Position numbers and translations under genes: made by a program
Assembly (NCBI GenBank): GCA_035516965.1
Contig: DATIZR010000064.1
Span: 6,724-70,723, forward strand
Reading direction: 5' to 3'
Source: Nitrospirota bacterium
GTDB taxonomy: Bacteria > Nitrospirota > UBA9217
Length of the DNA: 64,000 nt
Part shown: positions 4,186-50,477 of the stretch, in pieces
Numbering within the stretch: the first letter of the stretch is position 1
How the letters are laid out: every line of letters begins with the position of its first letter
Notes under the pieces: model-generated
Database searches by the model: none
Seen by the model: the letters and a program-made list of their open reading frames with translations, nothing else
What the model was told of the DNA's origin: nothing

Positions 4186-4440
4186 TCAACGCCCACCGAG
4201 GATCCCGCGCGGAGAAATAATCTCTCTTGCTATACTAGAGACAGAGACGTCATATGTGGTTTACCCTTGCCCAGACGACAAGGTATCAGCCATGACGCAC
4301 TTCAGGGGGCAGTGTAATAATTTTTCGTGAAAAAATAGCATGAAACATGAAACGACTGGGGTCACAGAGGTATCCTCTGTCTACTCCAGAAGAGTTTCGA
4401 TTTAAGGACGCTACGGGACGGATAATATCATGAGGGCGCA

Positions 4441-4520
4441 GAGGGAGAGGGTAGATGTTTTCTCGCACCCGACTATTATTTCAGTATTTTCCCGGTGTTC
4501 TCGGTGGTCGGCTTTAACTA
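4441..4520 (+). promoter_or_regulatory. Conserved approximately 80-nt leader element, copy 1. It contains an SD-like GAGGGAGAGG and a 20-codon uORF (4455..4517, MFSRTRLLFQYFPGVLGGRL) immediately upstream of gap.
   Basis: About 85% nucleotide identity to 34631..34710 by manual alignment. ATG at 4455 preceded by gagggagagggtag. In-frame stop TAA at 4515-4517. The gap start codon is 32 nt downstream. Confidence 0.5.
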
Positions 4521-4548
4521 TAGGCCTCGCGGAGAAAGGACGCAATTC

Positions 4549-5565
4549 ATGAAAACCATAGCCATTAACGGCCTGGGTCGCATAGGGATGCTGGCTCTTC
4601 GCCTCTATGTGGAGCGGCCGCCAAAGAACGTGGCGCTGGTGGCAGCCAACAGCCCGGCGCCGATCGAAGACCTTGCCTATCTGATCAAGTATGACTCCGT
4701 CCACGGCCGGGCGCCCTTTGAGATCAGGACGGGACCGGATTATCTGGACATCGGGCCCCACCGCATAGCCGTTTCCCACGAAACAGACCCGGAAAAGCTG
4801 GCCTGGCGCAGGCAGGGCATCGATATCGTCCTGGAATGCTCGGGACTCTTCCGGAAGCGGGAGGAGGCCGAAAAACACCTGCGGGCCGGCGCTGGAAAGG
4901 TCATCATAAGCGCCGACGCCAAGAACGAGGACCTGACAATCGTCCTCGGGGTGAACGAGCGATCCTACGATCCCGCGAAGCACCACATCATCTCCAATGC
5001 TTCCTGCACCACGAACTGCCTGGCCACCACGGCCAAGGTGCTCCTGGACGCCTTCGGCATCGACTATCTCATGGCCACGACCGTGCATGCTTACACCTCG
5101 AGCCAGGCGATCATCGACCGTTCGGCCCCCGGCCACCGGCGGCGGGGAAGGGCGGCCGGCGTCTCCCTGATCCCGTCCAGCACCGGCGCAGCAGCGGCAA
5201 CGCAACTCGTGCTGCCGCAGCTCAGGGGCAGGATGGAGGCGATCGCGGTGCGAGTGCCGGTCGCGAACGGGTCGCTCACGGACATCGTGGCCCATCTCGG
5301 AAGGGACGCTACCCGCGAGGAGGTGAATGCGGCGTTCAAGGCCGCGGCAGGCGGGCCTATGGCAGGCATCCTGGATTACAGCGAGGACGAGCTGGTTTCC
5401 GCCGACATCGTCGGAGACGAGCACTCCGCGATCGTGGACGCAAAGTCAACGCGGGTCCTGAGGGACCGCGTCGTCAAGGTGCTTGCCTGGTATGACAATG
5501 AATACGGCTATGCACGGCGCCTCCTGGACCTTGCGGGCCATATCGCCGGACAGGGGCCGAACTGA
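4549..5565 (+). CDS. gap: Type I glyceraldehyde-3-phosphate dehydrogenase
   Basis: N-terminal MKTIAINGLGRIG Rossmann motif and active-site SNASCTTNCLA. ATG at 4549 with RBS ggagaaagga 8 nt upstream. The ORF track's longer start at 4495 is not supported by an RBS. Confidence 0.9.
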   Translation: MKTIAINGLGRIGMLALRLYVERPPKNVALVAANSPAPIEDLAYLIKYDSVHGRAPFEIRTGPDYLDIGPHRIAVSHETDPEKLAWRRQGIDIVLECSGLFRKREEAEKHLRAGAGKVIISADAKNEDLTIVLGVNERSYDPAKHHIISNASCTTNCLATTAKVLLDAFGIDYLMATTVHAYTSSQAIIDRSAPGHRRRGRAAGVSLIPSSTGAAAATQLVLPQLRGRMEAIAVRVPVANGSLTDIVAHLGRDATREEVNAAFKAAAGGPMAGILDYSEDELVSADIVGDEHSAIVDAKSTRVLRDRVVKVLAWYDNEYGYARRLLDLAGHIAGQGPN

Positions 5566-8633: not shown

Positions 8634-9337
8634 ACCTGTTTGCCTCCTTCTCCGCCCGCAGATCCTGCTTCCCGGCTTGCCGGGACCCCGCGAGCACCGC
8701 CTTCCGTTCCCACGGAAGGGTTGGTGTTCAAGTCCAAATCCGCCGCGACTTCCGACGGCGCGATCACACACTGAATTTAATGTGTCATTTATCAAAATTG
8801 ATTCTCTTTGTCAAGAAAAAATCTCCTCGAGCTGCATTTTTTTCTCGCGGGAGCATCACTCGCGTCTGACACCACAAGACGAGCGCGATTTTCCGCTCAC
8901 GGGGGCGGACGAGGGAGCGAACTTTTCCGGGCGGGACGCCGTCTGCTGCTCTCCGGAGAGGCTCTCGTCAACGCCAACGCTCCGGCAACTCCCCGATCGA
9001 GCCTTGATCTGCCGTCTCCGGGCATCGCGCAGGTGCGCGTCTGTGCGGGAACGCTCATCAGCGCCGTCCAGAGCGGCGTTTGGCGTCCAAGGAAAGGGAC
9101 GCTGGAGCGATCGGAGAGTTCGAGAAGAAAGCCCGCGGAGAGCACCTTCTCCGGGACTTTCCCGAGCCGAGAAAAAATGCTTTACATCCGGAGCCGATAG
9201 TTTTAATATTGGGCTCTGATTTTGAAGGGTTGGACGCTCCAAACGCACCACAAGATGTAGGGCGGACCGGCCTTTTCGAGTTACCACTATATATAGAAGA
9301 GAGCTTCAGGCATTTCTGCCGACCGGAGGTATCGTCC

Positions 9338-10003: not shown

Positions 10004-10076
10004 CCGGCCGGCGGGCTCCGGACAAAACTGCACTCAGGATGGATTTACAATGCTCCCCGTGATATAATCTGAACCC

Positions 10077-10847
10077 ATGGGAAACCTGTTCCTCAGCTTC
10101 ACCATAGCCATCGGCGGCGCCATCGGCCTGGTCACCCTGAGCAGGGTGTTCGACCTGGAAACGTACTCCAGCCGCGTCTTCCCGCTCATCCCCATTCTCT
10201 ACGCGATCATCTACGAGGTCCTCGAACGCAGGAAGACCGGCAAGTCGCAGACGATCCCCCCGTCCCAGGCAAGGGAGGAGATGAGGGCCGGCGCGAAGGC
10301 GCTCTTCAAGAATATCACCCCGGGCCGGATCATCACCGACGTCGCCGTCAGTTTTGCCATCAAGTTCTCTGCCGAGACCCTGCTCGTGGCGCTGTTCATT
10401 TCCACCACGGGCCAGAGCTTCGAGAGCCTCTACGGCAACTTCGGGGTCGACACGGTCGGCCGGCTCCTGCGCGGCGACCATCCCTGGCTCATGGGGACCG
10501 ACGGCCTCATCCTCCTCGGGTTGATCGCGCTGCTGACCAGCATCGGCACCGGGCTCTGGATCGGGAACACCACCCAGGGCCAGGCCATCCTTGAAGGCGT
10601 CGTCGCCGGGGCAGCGGTAACGTTCATCACGGCAATGACGAACATGCTCATGCTCTACCGCAGGATCGAAGAGGCCGCGAACCAGATGGCCGCCTCCTTC
10701 GGATACGGCATCCACGTCGGCTTCGCCGCGGTCCTCCTCGTGCAGGTCCTGCTCTACGGCCTCTGGAGCGGCGTGGCGCAGAAGTCAAAGGAAAAGAAGG
10801 CCCTCCGGGCCGAGGTTAGAAAGTCGGCAAAGAAGCAGAAGAAGTAA
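10077..10847 (+). CDS. Integral membrane protein of unknown function (multiple TM helices, Lys-rich C-terminal tail)
   Basis: 256-aa ORF with hydrophobic segments throughout and the C-terminus …KSKEKKALRAEVRKSAKKQKK. Probably co-transcribed with the 9338..10003 Cys-rich protein. Confidence 0.55.
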   Translation: MGNLFLSFTIAIGGAIGLVTLSRVFDLETYSSRVFPLIPILYAIIYEVLERRKTGKSQTIPPSQAREEMRAGAKALFKNITPGRIITDVAVSFAIKFSAETLLVALFISTTGQSFESLYGNFGVDTVGRLLRGDHPWLMGTDGLILLGLIALLTSIGTGLWIGNTTQGQAILEGVVAGAAVTFITAMTNMLMLYRRIEEAANQMAASFGYGIHVGFAAVLLVQVLLYGLWSGVAQKSKEKKALRAEVRKSAKKQKK

Positions 10848-28443: not shown

Positions 28444-28687
28444 AATCAGACCTCCTTTTCTTTGGATAAGTATTCGGAAATTGACCTGAAGCGACAGTTT
28501 TGGGCCGTAATTCCCGTCCATTTCTGGCGGTCCGTTCAATTAAGAGTTGTTTTTTACCTGGTATTGACCCTATAATCGATCTTAAATATTACTTTGACAG
28601 ATAACTGTTTTGTGCTACAATGGTTTCTATACCAACCATTTGTATCACAGGGCTTTCCCGTTGTCAAGAGTCAATTTGGAGGTTTCG

Positions 28688-34526: not shown

Positions 34527-34630
34527 AACCACAAACTTAACCACAGAGAACACTGAGAAGAAATCTCTTAGATGTTCAAAAAAGTCTATGAACTCTGTGG
34601 CTAGAACTTCTCCAAAACTACGCTGGCGCC

Positions 34631-34710
34631 GAGGGGTGAGGTATATGTTTTCTCGCACCCGACTACTATTTCAGTATTTCCTCGACGTTCTCTGTGGTTG
34701 CTTTTTAAAT
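34631..34710 (+). promoter_or_regulatory. Conserved approximately 80-nt leader element, copy 2 (SD-like GAGGGGTGAGG plus the MFSRTRLLFQYF… mini-ORF, here in-frame with the downstream lipoprotein gene)
   Basis: ATG at 34645 preceded by gaggggtgaggtat. About 85% identical to 4441..4520. It reads through in-frame to the ATG at 34735. Confidence 0.5.
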
Positions 34711-34734: not shown

Positions 34735-35160
34735 ATGAAAGGATATGCTTTTTCAACGCTGCTCATGATAGTTGTTCTTTCCGGCTGCCATACAGCGGCA
34801 AGCTTCATCCTTCCGCCGGATACAGATTTGATGATTAACGGCGAACGCGTTGTCTTTAATGCACACGATGAAGAAGGGCGCTCGAAGCTCGAACGAAGAC
34901 CGTTTTTCTGGAACTCGATCGCCGGGATACAATACACTCTCCTGCAGGATGACAAGATCATTAAAAAAGATAAGCTGCCGTCCGGTTTCAGGATCACATC
35001 AATCTTTTGGCCCCCCTATGCATACATTTACTGGCCTGTCGGCTTTCGATTCGCCTGTTATGATCTATCGGATCCAAAGAAGGAGTTCGTGGAAAAGTGT
35101 ACTATACGCGATGGACAGGCAGGAAAGATGGAATCGCATCCGTCCACAACAATGCAATAA
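34735..35160 (+). CDS. Lipoprotein of unknown function
   Basis: ATG at 34735 with TAGGAGGA 6 nt upstream. Signal peptide plus lipobox MKGYAFSTLLMIVVLSGC. Confidence 0.6.
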   Translation: MKGYAFSTLLMIVVLSGCHTAASFILPPDTDLMINGERVVFNAHDEEGRSKLERRPFFWNSIAGIQYTLLQDDKIIKKDKLPSGFRITSIFWPPYAYIYWPVGFRFACYDLSDPKKEFVEKCTIRDGQAGKMESHPSTTMQ

Positions 35161-35280
35161 GTCATGATGGGCACCCACAAGGGGTGCCCCTACAGGATGT
35201 TCTCAAACCGCTTCTTTTCTGCCATAACGACCGATGTCTCTGTCAGGCGTTTGGGAATGGACCAATACTTCCTGAACGGA

Positions 35281-35649: not shown

Positions 35650-35800
35650 GACGAGAACCTCCTTTTTTTACCACAGAGGGCACGGAGCTGACACTTGCTT
35701 ATCACTTCGCGCCTCCGCGTGAGATGCTTTTGACCTCGCCTTCGGCCTTCACTCCTGCTGCTTGACGCCGCGCTCCTGTTCCAGTACACTGAGTCCCACC

Positions 35801-40254: not shown

Positions 40255-43200
40255 TCACGTCATGGCATCCGGTACTCCTTTTTTCGTCCGCTGCCGATGT
40301 TCTCCGCGGACCCGGCCGAACCAGATCCTGAACCGGTCAAGGTAGAGATACACAACGGGCGTGGTGTAGAGCGTGAGCATCTGGCTGAAGATGAGCCCTC
40401 CCACGATGGCAATGCCGAGCGGCCGCCGAAGCTCGGACCCCACGCCGTGGCCTACCGCAAGGGGCAGCGCCCCCAGAAGCGCAGCCATGGTCGTCATCAT
40501 GATCGGCCGGAACCGCAGGAGGCAGGCCTGGTAGATCGCCTCTTCCGGGCTCTTTCCCTCCCTGCGTTCGACCTCCAGGGCAAAGTCTACCATCAAGATC
40601 CCGTTTTTCTTCACGATGCCGATCAGGAGCAGGATGCCGATGATCGCGATGACGGAGAGGTCCGTGCGGAAGAGCATCAGGGCGAGCACAGCCCCCACGC
40701 CGGCCGAGGGAAGGGTCGAAAGGATGGTGACCGGATGGACATAGCTTTCGTACAGGACGCCGAGCACGATGTAGACGCACACGAGTGCCGCGAGGACCAG
40801 CAGCGGTTCGTTCACGAGGGAATCCTTAAACGCCTGGGCCGTACCGGAGAAATTGCCCCTGATGCTCACGGGCATTCCCATCTCGCGCTTGGCGCTCTCG
40901 AGGGAGGTGACCGCTTCGCCAAGCGCCACGCCGGGTGCCAGGTTGAACGACGTGGTGATCGACGGGAATTGGCCCTGGTGGTTCACGGCAAGCGACGTGG
41001 CCGTGGGTTCGTAATGGGTGAACGCGCTTAACGGTATCTGTGAGCCGCCAGAAGTGGGGATATAGATGTCCTTGAGCGTGTCGGGACGCTGCCAGAACCG
41101 GGGATCGACCTCCATGACCACGTGGTACTGGTTCAGGAGCGTGTAGGTGATCGAGACCTGGCGCTGACCAAAGGCGTCGTAGAGCGTGTCATCCACGAGC
41201 TGCGGCGTGATCCCGAGCCGCGAGGCCGTGGCACGGTCGATCATCAGCGTGGCCTCCAGCCCCCGGTTCTGCTGGTCGCTGCTCACGTCGACGAGCTTGG
41301 GAAGGGTCCGCATCTTCTGGAGCACCCGCTGGCCCCAGTCGTTCAGCTCGGCCAGGTTCTCCCCCTGGAGTGTGTACTGGTAGAGCGCGTTGCTGATCCT
41401 GCCGCCGATTCGCAGGTCCTGCACGGGCTGGAGAAAGGCCGGCGCGCCGGGCACGCTCACGAGCTTCCTCCTGAGCCGCGTGATGATCTCGGCCGCGGTC
41501 GCTTTTCGCTTGTCGAAGGGCTTGAGCGAGATGAACATCCGCCCCGTGTTCGTCGTGGACCCGCCCCCGCCCCCGCCGCCGGTGAACCCTATCACATAGT
41601 CCACGTCCGGGTCGTCCTTGATGATGTCGACAATCTGGAGCAGCTTCCCCTGCATGGCCTGGAACGACGTGTCCTGCGCCGCCTGGATCGTGCCGGCGAT
41701 GCGGCCGGTGTCCTGTTCCGGGAAGAAGCCCTTCGGAACGAGGACGAACAGGATCACATTGGCCGCGAGCGTCAGGGCGATCAGCGCCAGCATGAGGCGC
41801 GCGTGCCCCAGCGCCCAGCGCAGGCTCCGTTCGTAGCTGCCGTGCATCCAGTCGAACATCCGCCCGCTCGCCCGGTAGAGGGCCCCGTGTTCGCGCTTCC
41901 GTTCGGGCTTCAGGAGTGTGGCGCACATCATGGGGGTCGCGGTGAGCGAGACCAGGAGCGAGACCGTGATCGCCGCCGAGAGCGTGACCGCGAACTCTCG
42001 GAAGAGCCGGCCGACCATGCCGCCCATGAGCAGGATCGGGATGAACACGGCGACGAGCGAGACGCTCATCGACAGGACGGTAAAGGCGATCTCTTTCGTC
42101 CCGGACAGGGCCGCCTGGAACGGCGACTCCCCTTTTTCCCGGTACCGCGTGACGTTCTCGAGCACAACGATGGCGTCGTCGACCACGAAGCCCGTCGCGA
42201 TGGTGAGCGCCATGAGGGACAGGTTGTCCAGTGAGTAGCCGAACAGATACATGACCCCGAAGGTGCCGATGATGGACACGGCAACGGCGACCGCCGGGAT
42301 GATCGTGGCCCGGAGGTTCCGCAGGAACCAGAACACCACCAGGATCACGAGCGCGCCAGAAATGAGCAGCGTTCGTTCCACGTCATGCAGCGAGCCCCGG
42401 ATCGGCGGGGTGCGGTCGAGAACCACCGACAGTCTGACCGAGCCCGGCAGCGACGCCTCGAGCTGCGGCAGCAGGGACCGGACGCTGTCTACGGTCTCGA
42501 TGATGTTTGCTCCCGGCTGGCGAAACACGATGACCATGACGGCCGGCTTGCCGTTCACGAACCCGGCCGCCCGCACATCCTCCACCGAATCCTGGACGTT
42601 CGCCACGTCCGCCAGCCGCACTGCCGCGCCCGACCGGTAGGCGACGACAAGCGGCAGGTACTGTTCCGCCCCCCTCAGCTGGTCGTTCGTGCGGATCTCC
42701 CAGGTCGCATCATCCCTTGATACCTGTCCCTTTGGCCGGTTAACGTTCGTGCTGGCCAGCGCGTTCCGCACGGTTTCAAGGCTGATGCCGTATTTGGTGA
42801 TCGCCATGGGATTCAGGTCCACCCGGACCGCGGGAAGAGAGCTCCCCCCCACGAACACCTGACCCACGCCCTCCACCTGCGACAGCTTCTGCGCAAGGAT
42901 AGACGAGGCCGCGTCGTACATCTGGGCCCTGCTCGTTGTATCGGACGTGAGCGCCAGAATGAGGATCGGGGCGTCCGAAGGATTGACCTTGCGGTAGGTC
43001 GGATTGGCGGGAAGATTGGACGGGAGATCGCCGCGCGCTGCATTGATCGCCGCCTGCACGTCGCGGGCCGCGCCGTTGATGTCACGGTTCAGGTCGAACT
43101 GGAGAGTGATGCTGGTCGAGCCTCGGTTGCTCGTCGACGTCATCTCCGCCACGCCAGCAATGCGGCCGAACTGGCGCTCCAGGGGCGCGGCCACCGAGGT

Positions 43201-43380
43201 GGCCATGGTCTCCGGGTCCGCCCCGGGCAGGGCCGCCTGGACCGAGATCGTCGGAAAATCCACCTGGGGCAGGGGCGATACCGGGAGAAGCCGGAAGGAA
43301 ATAACGCCGGAGAGGATCAGGCCGATCGTCAGGAGCGTTGTCGCGACGGGTCTTCGTATGAAGGGCTCGGAGATGTTCAT
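40255..43380 (-). CDS. RND multidrug efflux permease (MdtC/AcrB-like), second pump subunit
   Basis: N-terminus [23 protein letters not shown]… and 12-TM RND architecture. About 1040 aa. Confidence 0.85.
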
Positions 43381-43483
43381 GTCTTCTCTTACGATGAACT
43401 CGTAGGGCAACCCTCGTGGTTGCCCCTGGCGGGCACAGTATGCGCTTTTGTTGCCCCTGGGCGGGCACGAGGCCCGGGGACCC

Positions 43484-46400
43484 CTACGTTCTTTTGAAAC
43501 GCCTCGCCAGCCGGTCGAACCAGAGATAAATGACCGGCGTGGTATAGAGCGTCAGGACCTGGCTGATGACAAGCCCGCCCACGATCGAGATGCCGAGAGG
43601 ACGCCGGAGCTCGGAGCCCACGCCGTGTCCCACGGCCAGGGGCAGCGCCCCGAGGATCGCGGCCATGGTCGTCATCATGATCGGACGGAACCTGAGGAGG
43701 CAGGCCTGGTAGATCGCTTCTTCCGGACCCTTGCCTTCCTTGCGTTCGGCTTCCAGCGCGAAGTCGACCATCATGATGCCGTTCTTCTTCACGATGCCGA
43801 TCAGGAGGATGATGCCGATGATCGCGATTACGGAGAGCTCCGAGCGGAAGAGCATGAGCGACAGCACGGCACCAACACCCGCGGAGGGCAGGGTCGAGAG
43901 GATCGTGATCGGATGGATATAGCTTTCGTACAGCACGCCGAGCACGATGTACACGGTCACCAGCGCGGCAAGGATCAGGAGGGGTTCATTGGTGAGCGAG
44001 GCCTTGAACGCCTGGGCGGTTCCCTGGAAGCTCCCCCGGATGCTCGCGGGAAGCTGGAGCTCCCGTGCCACGTCCTCGACCGCGTCGACCGCCTCGCCGA
44101 GCGATGCACGGGGCGCCAGGTTGAACGACGTGGTCACGGCCGGGAACTGCCCCTGCCGGTTCACGACCAGCGGGCCAGTCGTTTCCTGCGCCGTGGTAAT
44201 CGCGCCCAGGGGCACCTGTCCCCCGCCCGCGCCGCGTAGGTAGATCGACTGCAGCCCCCCGGGGCCCTGGTTAAATTCGGGCTTGACCGCGAGCACAACG
44301 CGGTACTGGTTCAGCTCTGTGAAGATCGTGGACACCTGGCGCTGGCCGAAGGCGTCGTAGAGCGTATCGTCGATGAGCTGAGGCGTGATGCCGAGCCGCG
44401 ACGCGCTCGCCCGGTCGATGGCAAGCGCGACCCTGAGGCCCCGGTCCTGCTGGTCGCTGCTCACGTCGCGCAGCTCGGGGCGCTGGCGCAGCATGGCGAC
44501 CACCCTGGGCGCGAGGTCGTTCAGCTCATCGGTATTGGGGTCGTCGAGGGTATACTGGAACTGGGTGCGGCTAACCCGCGCATCCACGGTCAGGTCCTGC
44601 ACGGACTGCATATAGAGCGCTATCCCCTCAACCTTGTCGAGCTCCGGCTGGAGCCGCCTGATCACCTCGGTCGCGCTGGCGTCCCGCTTTTCGAGCGGCT
44701 TGAGGTTGATCAGGATGCGGCCGCTGTTCAGCGTCGTATTGGTCCCGTCGACACCGATGAAGGTCGAGAGGCTTTCGACCGCGGGGTCCTTCAGGATCAC
44801 CCGGGCGAGCGCCTGCTGCCGCTCGGCCATTGCCGTGAACGAGATCGACTGCGGAGCCTCCGAGATGCCCTGGATGGCGCCCGTATCCTGGACCGGGAAG
44901 AAGCCCTTCGGGACGACGAGGTAGAGAAGCACCGTCAGGACCAGCGTGGCCGCGGCGACAACAAGCGTTGCCGTCTGGTGCTTGAGCACCCATCGCAGCG
45001 TTCTGCCGTACTCGGCAATGACCCGGTCGAAGAACTGCTGCGAGGCATGGTAGAACCTACCCTGCTTCTCCTCGGGCACGTGCTTCAGGATCCGCGCGCA
45101 CATCATAGGGGTGAGAGTCAGCGACACGACTGCCGAGATGAGGATGGTTACGCCCAGGGTGATGGCGAACTCCCGGAAGAGCCGTCCGACCACGTCGCCC
45201 ATGAACAAGAGCGGGATGAGCACGGCGATGAGCGAGACCGTGAGCGAAAGGATGGTGAAGCCGATCTGCTTCGCTCCCTTGAGGGCCGCCTGCTTCGGCG
45301 GCTCCCCTTCCTCGACATAGCGGGAGATGTTCTCGATCATGACGATAGCGTCATCGACCACGAAGCCCGTGGAAATCGTGAGCGCCATGAGCGAGAGGTT
45401 GTTCAGGCTGAACCCCACGAGGTACATGACCCCGAAGGTCCCTACGAGGGAGAGCGGAACTGCGACGCCCGGGATGGCCGTCGCCGGAAGGTTGCGGAGA
45501 AAAAGATAGATGACGAGCACGACCAGTGCCACGGCCAGCAAAAGCTCGTACTCCACGTCCCGTACCGACGCGCGAATGGTCGTGGTGCGGTCCGTGAGGA
45601 TGGTGACCCTGATGGATGAGGGAAGCGCGCTCTGGAGCTGCGGCAGGAGCTTCTTGATCCGGTCGACGACCTCGATGACGTTGGCGCCGGGCTGCCGCTG
45701 GATGTTGACGATCACGGCGGGGGACGTATTGACCCAGGCCGCCTGGTTCACGTTCTCAGCGTCGTCGATCACGTCGGCCACATCGGACAGCCGCACCGGC
45801 GCGCCGTTCCGGTATGCCACGATCAGCGGCCGGTAGTCCTTGCTCGTCAGGAGCTGGTCGTTCGCGCCGATGATGTACGCCTGGCGCGGCCCGTCGAAGC
45901 CCCCCTTGGCCTGGTTGACGTTCGCGGCGGTGATGGCCGTACGCAAATCTTCAAGCGTGAGCCCGTACGCCGCCAGGGCCGTGGGGTTGGCGTGGACCCG
46001 GACCGCGGGGCGCTGGCCGCCGCTGATCGAGACGAGCCCCACGCCCGGGAGCTGGGAGATCTTCTGCGCGAAGCGCGTGTCCGCCATGTCTTCGACCTGC
46101 GGAAGCGCCAGCGTGTCCGAGGTGAGGGCCAGGGTCAGGATCGGCGTGTCCGCGGGGTTGACCTTGCTGTACACCGGCGGGGTGGGAAGATCCCGCGGCA
46201 GGAACGTGAAGGCCGCGTTGATGGCCGCCTGGACTTCCTGTTCGGCAACGTCCAGGGAGAGGTCCAGGCTGAACTGGAGGGTAATGACCGAGCTGCCGCC
46301 GGAGCTTGCCGACGTCATCTGCGTGAGCCCCGGCATCTGGCCGAACTGCCGCTCGAGCGGGGCCGTCACCGAGGATGCCATGACATCGGGGCTTGCGCCG

Positions 46401-46555
46401 GGATAGAACGTACGGACCTGAATCGTGGGGTAATCGACCTCGGGCAGGGCCGAGACCGGCAGCTGCTTGTACGCTACCGCACCCGCCAAAAGAATGGCAA
46501 TCATCAGGAGCGTAGTTGCAACCGGCCGCTCGATGAAGATGCGCGAGATGTTCAT
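43484..46555 (-). CDS. RND multidrug efflux permease (MdtB/AcrB-like), first pump subunit
   Basis: N-terminus [25 protein letters not shown]…. 1023 aa. ATGA overlap with the upstream MFP gene. Confidence 0.85.
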
Positions 46556-50122: not shown

Positions 50123-50477
50123 TGGTGGAGGCGGTGGGATTCGAACCCACGTCCGAAAACCGTCAGCCAGAAGCTCATACATGCTTATCCCCTCATTTAT
50201 AGCTGTCGCCTCTTCCGGCGCCTCAGGGAAAGCTCCGGAGTCAGCCAGCCCGGTTTATCTTATCCTCCCGCCCCGGACGAAGTCGGGAAGACCAGCCTGG
50301 TTTGTGACGTCCCTGCGGCAGTTCAGGCGCCGGCCGCGGAACGCGCTGACTAGTTAATTAGGCAGCGAGTGCCAGTTCGTTATTGGCAGTTGTTATTTAC
50401 CATGTGTTTTACGAGCCCCATGGCACCTCGGCATGCAACTCCTGACCTCTGTGTCCCCGTCGAAACCTGTCGCCCCC
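50123..50477 (-). ncRNA. ssrA: tmRNA (SsrA), tag peptide ANNELALAA
   Basis: The minus strand gives 5'-GGGGGCGACAGGUUUCGACGGGGACACAGAGG… and 3'-…GGAUUCGAAUCCCACCGCCUCCACCA (T-arm/acceptor). The internal ORF gccaataacgaactggcactcgctgcctaa encodes ANNELALAA followed by a stop. Confidence 0.9.

Follow-up and report, generated by a model that had tools for sequence, protein, structure and literature searches.

A duplicated leader segment upstream of gap and a lipoprotein gene in a Nitrospirota genome is probably part of a MITE/REP-like hairpin repeat

REPINs are hairpin-forming intergenic repeats without target-site duplications, in which the complementarity of the arms is kept and which often lie at gene ends or near terminators. 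REPs have a conserved GT(A/G)G head and REPINs a short spacer, and their mobilisation depends on RAYT proteins, which are Y1 transposases of the IS200/IS605 type. REPINs are regarded as chromosomal and vertically inherited. Among MITEs, the Correia element of Neisseria (CREE) and the enterobacterial ERIC/IRU are those that come closest to the locus analysed here, and it has been reported that CREE and ERIC can influence transcription (PMC3488235). In addition, putative mobile promoters have been defined as sequences of more than 50 nt with at least 80% identity that stand between non-homologous coding sequences up- and downstream (Matus-Garcia et al. 2012, PMC3488235), and two-member families were the commonest class among them (PMC3488235).

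We have analysed a pair of related segments in a 64,000-nt stretch of Nitrospirota DNA, referred to in full as the window. A preliminary description had noticed an element of about 80 nt upstream of gap and again, 30 kb away, upstream of a lipoprotein gene, and had read it either as a leader-peptide or translational-coupling module or as a small mobile or repeat element of the REP/MITE kind. The duplication is real. Our repeat search aligned 4435-4515 with 34625-34705 at 81% identity over 81 nt, and the 35-mer ATGTTTTCTCGCACCCGACTAYTATTTCAGTATTT was found exactly twice in the window, both times on the + strand, where 0.00 occurrences were expected (100 shuffles). The two downstream genes had also been named correctly, gap encoding a type I GAPDH; the lipoprotein carries no Pfam domain. 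The boundaries of the element, in turn, had been drawn too narrowly. With the diverged orthologous copies of three relatives (L095-L097, from a sister lineage, reached via members of the 90% gap cluster and 94-98% identical to the window in their coding DNA) added to the alignment, the homologous unit extends from arm to arm over about 160 nt (Table 1), and its left half contains a block (TCCAAAAAAGTTTCAATGAA versus TTCAAAAAAGTCTATGAA) whose homology was invisible in the first reading. The 80-nt match is therefore probably the right half, and the better-preserved one, of a hairpin repeat of about 160 nt that is non-coding and MITE/REP-like and is present twice in the window, in two 5′ leaders. 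Its arms define a family of small hairpin repeats that is widespread, occurring both in bacterial chromosomes and in tailed phages. Of the two readings first proposed, it is the mobile or repeat element that is supported, by a segment lying inside an inverted-repeat-bounded unit whose arms recur in other phyla and in phages.

Table 1. Positions of the repeat copies, their parts and the neighbouring features, numbered within the window.
Feature	Position	Strand	Basis or remark
Extended -10-like motif TGCTATACT, likely gap promoter, outside the repeat	4224-4232	+	kept in L095-L097 and in the distant L009 (TGATATACT)
Copy 1, full unit	4351-4509	+	in gap 5′ leader; alignment with L095-L097 and copy 2
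Copy 1, left arm, degenerate: AACGACTGGG in place of family AACCACAGAG	4351-4360	+	intact AACCACAGAG in orthologous L096 and L097
Copy 1, second CACAGAG unit with local hairpin partner (ACAGAGG-TAT-CCTCTGT)	4361-4380	+	hairpin kept in L096 and L097
Copy 1, segment seen in the preliminary description (interior core and right arm)	4435-4520	+	repeat search
Copy 1, 35-nt core	4455-4489	+	34/35 positions match copy 2; 5/35 differ from orthologous L096
Mini-ORF of 20 codons, judged incidental	4455-4517	+	encodes MFSRTRLLFQYFPGVLGGRL, then stop
Copy 1, right arm, two units: CCCGGTG-TT-CTCGGTGGTC	4491-4509	+	family form CTCTGTG-TT-CTCTGTGGTT
gap (type I GAPDH), downstream of copy 1	4549-5565	+	Pfam Gp_dh_N, Gp_dh_C
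Copy 2, full unit	34539-34699	+	12 nt past the DUF421 stop codon; 35 nt before the lipoprotein ATG
Copy 2, left arm AACCACAGAGAAC, then second unit CACTGAG	34539-34551	+	inverted-repeat search; closely resembles left arm of phage element L131
Copy 2, 35-nt core	34645-34679	+	35-mer search
Copy 2, right arm GTTCTCTGTGGTT, then GCTTTTT	34687-34699	+	pairs with left arm
Lipoprotein gene, lipobox LSGC, downstream of copy 2	34735-35160	+	same start from gene callers; homologs start MK...
Probable third member, short and degenerate (TACCACAGAGGGCACGGAG...CGCGCCTCCGCG)	35669-35730 (approx.)	+	cupin-HD divergent spacer; array motif

The unit is bounded by inverted arms of the form AACCACAGAG(AAC)...(GTT)CTCTGTGGTT, which make a perfect inverted repeat of 13 bp in copy 2, and each arm of the long copies contains two units of the CACAGAG type. 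In copy 1 of L095-L097 the arms AACCACAGAG and CTCTGTGGTT are intact over 10-11 bp, whereas those of window copy 1 have decayed to the forms given in Table 1. With its arms intact, the whole unit folds far better than shuffles, which neither the decayed window copy 1 nor the 96-nt pieces of the segment first described do (for the latter, z from +1.2 to -1.3 on either strand), and no terminator pattern was found inside the shared segment. The two long copies are oriented alike, each ending 35-39 nt upstream of a start codon, which could hint at a function but is not significant with n=2. Copy 1 is preceded by a PEP-utilising (PPDK-like) gene and followed by gap, and copy 2 is preceded by a DUF421/YetF gene and followed by the lipoprotein gene. 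Five other contigs of the same strain have an identical copy 1, and five metagenome contigs an identical copy 2. The two long copies descend from a common ancestor that already had about 110 nt of interior between arms made of AACCACAGAG and (N)CACAGAG units; since this interior was already there in the shared ancestor, at least one copying event took in the unit as a whole.

Only these two copies of the long form are known. Over about 1.4 Mb of DNA, nhmmer returned no copy beyond the two long ones, an exact scan with a 22-mer of the core gave 0 matches in genome contigs and 0 in viral contigs, and BLAST of both spacers against plasmids and phages gave no match. A single 22-mer match in the metagenome contigs lay inside a CDS and was put down to chance. 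Moreover, a six-frame pseudo-protein query against 5.8 billion proteins gave no called ORF over other copies (none at E <= 10), which argues against a high copy number of this subfamily. The gap-protein search of the genome contigs yielded, among the matches listed (a generic GAPDH motif), identities of at most 57% throughout, and these were used as negative controls.

Comparison with relatives places the element at sites where it is not always present. L095-L097 carry copy 1 in a spacer equal in length to that of the window. In L009, a 3-Mb relative with the same PPDK-gap synteny and a gap identity of 79% in amino acids and 72.5% in nucleotides, the spacer measures 209 nt versus 363 nt in the window; the alignment keeps the promoter-like TG-n-TATACT, the leader block and the SD region, and it is about 225 nt of the window (~4301-4524), element included, that are missing from it. 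Similarly, L091 has the DUF421 gene (89% nucleotide identity) and the lipoprotein gene (79% amino-acid identity), but an unrelated spacer of 140 nt lies between them. In the sister lineage L098-L103, DUF421 is followed by 73 nt and a cupin gene, with neither the lipoprotein gene nor copy 2 present. The syntenic sites of L009 and L091 are thus without the element, and the relatives yielded no clean empty site whose flanks match. L007 was considered as an empty site and given no weight, as its sequence starts 3 nt beyond the insertion boundary. Upstream of copy 1, the extended -10-like motif likely acts as the gap promoter, and as copy 1 lies downstream of this conserved promoter-like motif, it is probably transcribed within the gap leader. 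A stretch at 4193-4200 that is complementary over 8 bp to the copy 1 right arm, upstream of the promoter and shared with L009, was attributed to chance.

Between the window and L095-L097 the element differs at 16-20% of its positions (5/35 in the core), and fourfold-degenerate sites differ at 11.8% in gap and at 7.2% in the adjacent decarboxylase gene. Because the element differs more than these fourfold-degenerate sites (16-20% against 7-12%), it is without detectable purifying selection. The 35-nt core adds a complication: its changes number 0 in copy 2 alone, 4 in L096 alone and 1 in window copy 1 alone, against 43 copy-2-specific changes in the remainder of the element. Neutral decay alone is insufficient for a core so nearly identical, which requires gene conversion or a constraint at the level of the family. 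A core constrained in the ancestral element lineage and drifting only after insertion fits this pattern; a short gene-conversion tract that homogenised both window cores fits it as well.

Outside the Nitrospirota, one member was a chance find made by searching the collected loci for AACCACAGAG. It lies in a Syntrophobacteraceae MAG (L072), between a uvrB-like ORF (read from its translation) and a gene for a secreted protein, and has arms AGCAAACCACAGAGG and CCTCTGTGGTTTGCT, three tandem CACAGAG units after the left arm and an unrelated interior. Viral contigs were scanned for AACCACAGAG-N-CTCTGTGGTT by gap-length class, which gave 4 matches for gaps of 15-44 nt, 14 for 45-74 nt, 7 for 75-104 nt, 4 for 105-135 nt and 2 for 136-166 nt; a control scan of the viral contigs, with a right arm of the same composition that was not complementary, gave 0 matches. 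About 20 distinct viral matches carry mirrored tandem (N1-2)CACAGAG arrays with 1-4 units per arm (mostly 2-4). These array-bearing elements, which make up almost all matches in the gap classes of 45-135 nt, are 67-147 nt long and have unrelated interiors, and the arms of the phage members reach 19-33 nt with no more than 2 mismatches. Viral matches without arrays were inside ORFs, at chance frequency. The contigs are those of tailed phages, with genes for portal, prohead protease, capsid and tape-measure proteins, and some of them carry 2-3 copies. The phage elements are intergenic, examples being one immediately 3′ of a capsid gene and another that separates portal and protease genes, and host GC content ranges from 0.34 to 0.69. 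In the left arm, copy 2 (AACCACAGAGAACACTGAGAAGAAA) and L131 (AACCACAGAGAACACAGAGAAA) are almost alike; no phage member has the interior core found in the two window copies. Within the window, the array motif was observed 3 times against 0.05 expected, in copy 2, in the probable third member and in the OmpA CDS. The third member is kept in L098 and L100, where both its arms are clearer. The OmpA occurrence, a 14-nt match to the right arm of copy 1 at 27936-27949, has no partner arm and was rejected as a coincidence.

What lies outside the conserved 10-mer is informative too. The flanks are complementary more often than expected by chance, in 15/25 elements at position +/-1 and in 17/25 at +/-2, where two pair types occur. 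On the left the flank is A-rich (A at -8 in 19/25 elements), on the right T-rich, which is the setting of an intrinsic terminator. Within the arms, the first spacer (position 11) is complementary in 13/25 only, and as spacer positions are so often mismatched, the units look conserved as sequence and not as pairs. The flanks of copy 1, copy 2, the L072 element and 22 phage members show no direct repeat that could be a target-site duplication. Protein families shared near the phage members were only portal, protease and capsid, which point to no mobilising enzyme, and no transposase or candidate mobilising gene was found adjoining the members examined.

If the unit is mobile, as we infer, a protein acting in trans would most likely copy or insert it, recognising either the repeated CACAGAG units or the hairpin that they form. 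The repeated heptamers, being conserved, point to a protein that binds a specific sequence, while the mirrored arms together with the complementary flanks suggest hairpin recognition or insertion into palindromic, terminator-like sites. After insertion, the copies would decay roughly neutrally. Both long copies would have landed just upstream of a ribosome-binding site and would consequently be carried in the gap and lipoprotein 5′ leaders, and the element may affect expression.

The leader-peptide reading deserves to be weighed against this in full. The observations behind it were accurate, in that the mini-ORF of copy 1 has 20 codons and the same frame in copy 2 (ATG at 34645) stays open as far as the lipoprotein ATG at 34735. 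Both window copies do have an ATG and SD-like GAGG motifs and, the start-codon change aside, 3/4 core differences from L096 are synonymous in the mini-ORF frame. Yet a genuine leader-peptide (uORF) regulatory module is very improbable. Conservation of the ATG and its frame among copies, on which the preliminary description had itself made the reading depend, breaks down in L095-L097, which have AAG at the position of the ATG, in a frame reading KFSRIRLLFQYFLGVLCGWF and then a stop, with no in-frame ATG, GTG or TTG between the upstream TGA and the AAG codon. Stop position and frame are unlike even between the window copies, a 20-codon ORF standing in copy 1 against a lipoprotein fusion in copy 2. 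Over the whole mini-ORF, window and orthologs are separated by 4 synonymous and 5 non-synonymous changes, a split indistinguishable from neutrality; neither the peptide nor the other frames of the segment have a similar protein among 5.8 billion predicted proteins; the lipoprotein homologs all start at the MK... position; and the element is absent at the same sites in relatives. The mini-ORF was also considered as a relic of a longer lipoprotein or GAPDH N-terminus and rejected, the N-terminal extensions of homologs being unrelated. The arrangement of SD, ATG and peptide is a by-product of the repeat sequence, and is neither a conserved coding feature nor a regulatory one. The copies could, in another reading, be attL and attR of an integrated island of 30 kb, being direct repeats 30,190 nt apart in a region where GC is lower between about 16 and 36 kb (down to 0.46-0.55 in part). 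This has next to no probability: the annotated genes that separate the copies are of an ordinary kind (spermidine synthase, RACo, CdhD, ArsR, UvrD, ClC, OmpA and others), with no integrase, recombinase or phage gene among them, copy 2 is missing from the sister lineage although copy 1 is there, and the repeats are only 81% identical, each with inverted arms of its own.

A further alternative is a host-selected RNA module in both leaders, either a terminator/attenuator or an mRNA-stabilising or processing hairpin, spread by recombination and not by transposition. Where the arms are intact, the whole unit does fold much more strongly than shuffles (copy 2, z = -3.1; copy 1 of L096, z = -4.5), T-runs follow the right arm in copy 2 (GCTTTTT) and L096 (GGTTTT), and family members lie between A-rich left and T-rich right flanks, after phage capsid and portal genes. 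Moreover, 9/11 terminal pairs of window copy 1 can still form in RNA through G-U pairs, one double change included, so that some selection for RNA structure may persist. Nonetheless, we consider this module unlikely. The arms of window copy 1 have decayed, and its fold does not stand out from shuffles (z = -1.4); divergence of the element outpaces that of synonymous sites; RNAalifold gives covariation an unfavourable term (+1), with double changes in only 3/44 pairs; the arm spacers are often mismatched; and a loop of 135 nt makes a poor terminator. A duplicated promoter or 5′-UTR module copied by recombination and rewiring an unrelated gene, that is a putative mobile promoter, is more doubtful still. 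The pair does agree with the published operational definition (81 nt at 81% identity, with gap and the lipoprotein gene downstream and the PPDK-like and DUF421 genes upstream; PMC3488235), and both copies end in the same orientation 35-39 nt before a start codon. Against it, no sigma-70-like promoter was found within the shared segment; the conserved gap promoter-like motif stands upstream of the element and outside it; and the inverted arms recur in unrelated genomes with other interiors, which speaks for an element and not an ad hoc duplication. As PMC3488235 lists MITE-like elements as a route to mobile promoters, this alternative overlaps with the hairpin repeat. Perhaps, more boldly, the CACAGAG-array hairpins are a new family of portable terminator-like cassettes moving between tailed phages and bacteria of several phyla, of which the Nitrospirota copies would be cargo-carrying derivatives whose core is kept by selection or gene conversion as a portable 5′-UTR module. 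We give this a low probability, like the RNA module; candidate movers would be an array-binding enzyme, an enzyme recognising ssDNA hairpins or a fold-back copying process that keeps the arms mirrored, and insertion would be into palindromic sites with an A-run and a T-run.

The element was also compared with catalogued RNAs. In the window, only the tmRNA (50123-50477) passes the Rfam gathering threshold, both copy regions being noise, and Rfam on both copies, L096, L072 and seven phage loci gave nothing, or miRNA-hairpin noise below threshold. Searching the literature for the sequence strings brought up unrelated primer matches only, and no prior description. This sequence-defined hairpin family, in Nitrospirota, a Syntrophobacteraceae MAG and about 20 tailed-phage contigs, appears to be undescribed, with no match found in Rfam or in the papers searched. 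For the window, the "conserved leader peptide" upstream of gap turns out to be a tempting false lead, and the case illustrates that a repeat can mimic a module of RBS, ATG and peptide. The finding in the window itself is fairly ordinary, and it is the family that would merit a proper census. If truly mobile, it would be a useful marker of DNA exchange between phages and hosts, and would supply ready-made hairpins that alter termination or mRNA stability where they land, including the leader of the glycolytic gap.

Set beside the known systems, the window element resembles MITEs such as CREE and ERIC/IRU in being small (~100-160 nt) and non-coding and in having terminal inverted repeats; like them it is dispersed and intergenic, often just upstream of genes, and differs between close relatives, and these MITEs are co-transcribed and form long RNA hairpins, which is probably a further likeness. 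Its size of about 160 nt is well within the limit of about 500 bp for MITEs and it has no coding capacity (the ORF start is lost in orthologs and there are no protein matches), and its inverted repeats measure 13 bp in copy 2, 10-11 bp in L095-L097 and 19-33 nt in phage members. The 64 kb hold two long copies and, probably, one short and degenerate member. Unlike MITEs, it shows no duplication of TA or another target site, its flanks being complementary instead (15-17/25 at +/-1 and +/-2); it has no known parent IS; and its arms are arrays of a 7-nt unit (CACAGAG) in variable number, where MITEs have a single long TIR. In addition, the family is not restricted to one genus, spanning hosts of 34-69% GC and tailed phages. 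Since no target-site duplication is present, the element is not filed as a canonical MITE.

With REPINs, the CACAGAG family shares hairpin formation, arms kept complementary, intergenic position, the lack of a target-site duplication and a place near terminators; unlike them it has a loop of 10-135 nt and is common in phage contigs. No RAYT was seen among the annotated ORFs of the window or near the members examined, and the conserved end of the family is (T)TAACCACAGAG and not the GT(A/G)G head of REPs, so that, with neither a RAYT gene nor a GTAG head seen, the element is not filed as a REPIN. Integron attC sites, which have R'' RYYYAAC and R' GTTRRRY boxes and extrahelical bases and occur in cassette arrays, were considered and rejected: AAC and GTT do stand at the ends, but the RYYY/RRRY neighbours fit only a minority of members, and the copies are solitary and 30 kb apart, with no integrase and no cassette array. 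Putative mobile promoters are a class set by position and similarity only, and the window pair fits it in that sense, no promoter being detected in the shared segment. Finally, like intrinsic (Rho-independent, including bidirectional) terminators, the members of the family are GC-containing hairpins, A-rich before and T-rich after, located 3′ of genes. The loops of the window copies are far too long for efficient terminators, and whereas ordinary terminators have no common sequence, the members of this family share an exact 10-mer and repeated heptamers across phyla.

Conserved blocks of the gap upstream region were recognized as far as the distant relative L009, which shares the PPDK-gap synteny and whose spacer is without the ~225 nt that include the element. 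These blocks probably constitute the real gap promoter and its leader or operator, rather than the repeat. At the start of gap itself, a 40-codon ORF, distinct from the 20-codon mini-ORF and encoding MRAQRERVDVFSHPTIISVFSRCSRWSALTIGLAEKGRNS, was identified, where the ATG lies within copy 1 and the TGA stop overlaps the gap start codon as ATGA. In the sister-lineage locus L096 this ORF retains its ATG, its uninterrupted frame and its overlap with gap, with 15 of the 40 residues changed between the two. It is possible that this overlap represents a translational-coupling arrangement, or that it arose by chance in GC-rich DNA. In a strain with a gap identity of 97.8% (L007), the contig begins 27 nt before the gap ATG (region 1–30), and its first 3 nt (GCA) fit the sequence just left of the ~225-nt insertion, not the element end. 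With a match as short as 3 nt, this start may reflect either an empty site or a break in the assembly at a polymorphism. As for L009, where the repeat is absent, an IS605 OrfB/TnpB-type gene was observed directly upstream of the PPDK-like gene; no link between this gene and the hairpin element was found.

Around copy 2, the lipoprotein gene itself shows a presence/absence polymorphism, and in the sister-lineage loci L098–L103 only 73 nt lie between DUF421 and the cupin gene. Compared with L098, the window holds 82 extra nt at about 35198–35279. The lipoprotein and cupin genes converge on a GC-rich hairpin, also present in L098, that is likely a bidirectional terminator.

Coordinates of features in the window and in related loci
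Feature	Locus	Position	Sequence, strand or match	Setting
Conserved gap upstream blocks	window	4216–4300	extended -10-like TG-n-TATACT, then GTCATnTnTGGTTTnCCCTTG...CGACAAnGnAT	kept in L009
40-codon ORF	window	4430–4552		copy 1 and gap start
Tandem duplication	window	26905–28623		OmpA-family genes
Lipoprotein gene polymorphism	window vs L098	34527–35280 vs 5104–5176		
GC-rich hairpin	window	35169–35189	GGGCACCC-ACAA-GGGGTGCCC	
Short degenerate family member	window	35669–35730	TACCACAGAGGGCACGGAG...	divergent cupin-HD spacer
RND (ACR_tran) genes	window	40255–46555		
tmRNA gene	window	50123–50477	- strand; Rfam RF00023, 202.9 bits	
IS605 OrfB/TnpB-type gene	L009	3737–4969		
Family members	L116	6339–6436 and 11521–11618	opposite orientation	around structural genes
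Family members	L133	763–846, ~9000–9100, ~10040–10096		

Elsewhere in the window, a ~900-nt tandem duplication comprises two OmpA-family genes with their upstream regions, its repeat families sharing 74–89% identity, and paralogous RND transporter genes lie two side by side, with 300-nt blocks of 77–83% identity at 3.18 kb spacing. The metagenome contig of 113.8 kb on which both repeat copies lie ends, by coordinate arithmetic, around position 50.8 kb of the window, close to the tmRNA gene.

The short degenerate member of the hairpin family in the cupin-HD spacer is conserved in L098 and L100, in both of which the two arms are clearer. Among tailed-phage contigs, several carry two or three family members apiece, spaced a few kb, and other long hairpins of these same multi-member contigs gave sub-threshold, miRNA-like matches to Rfam.
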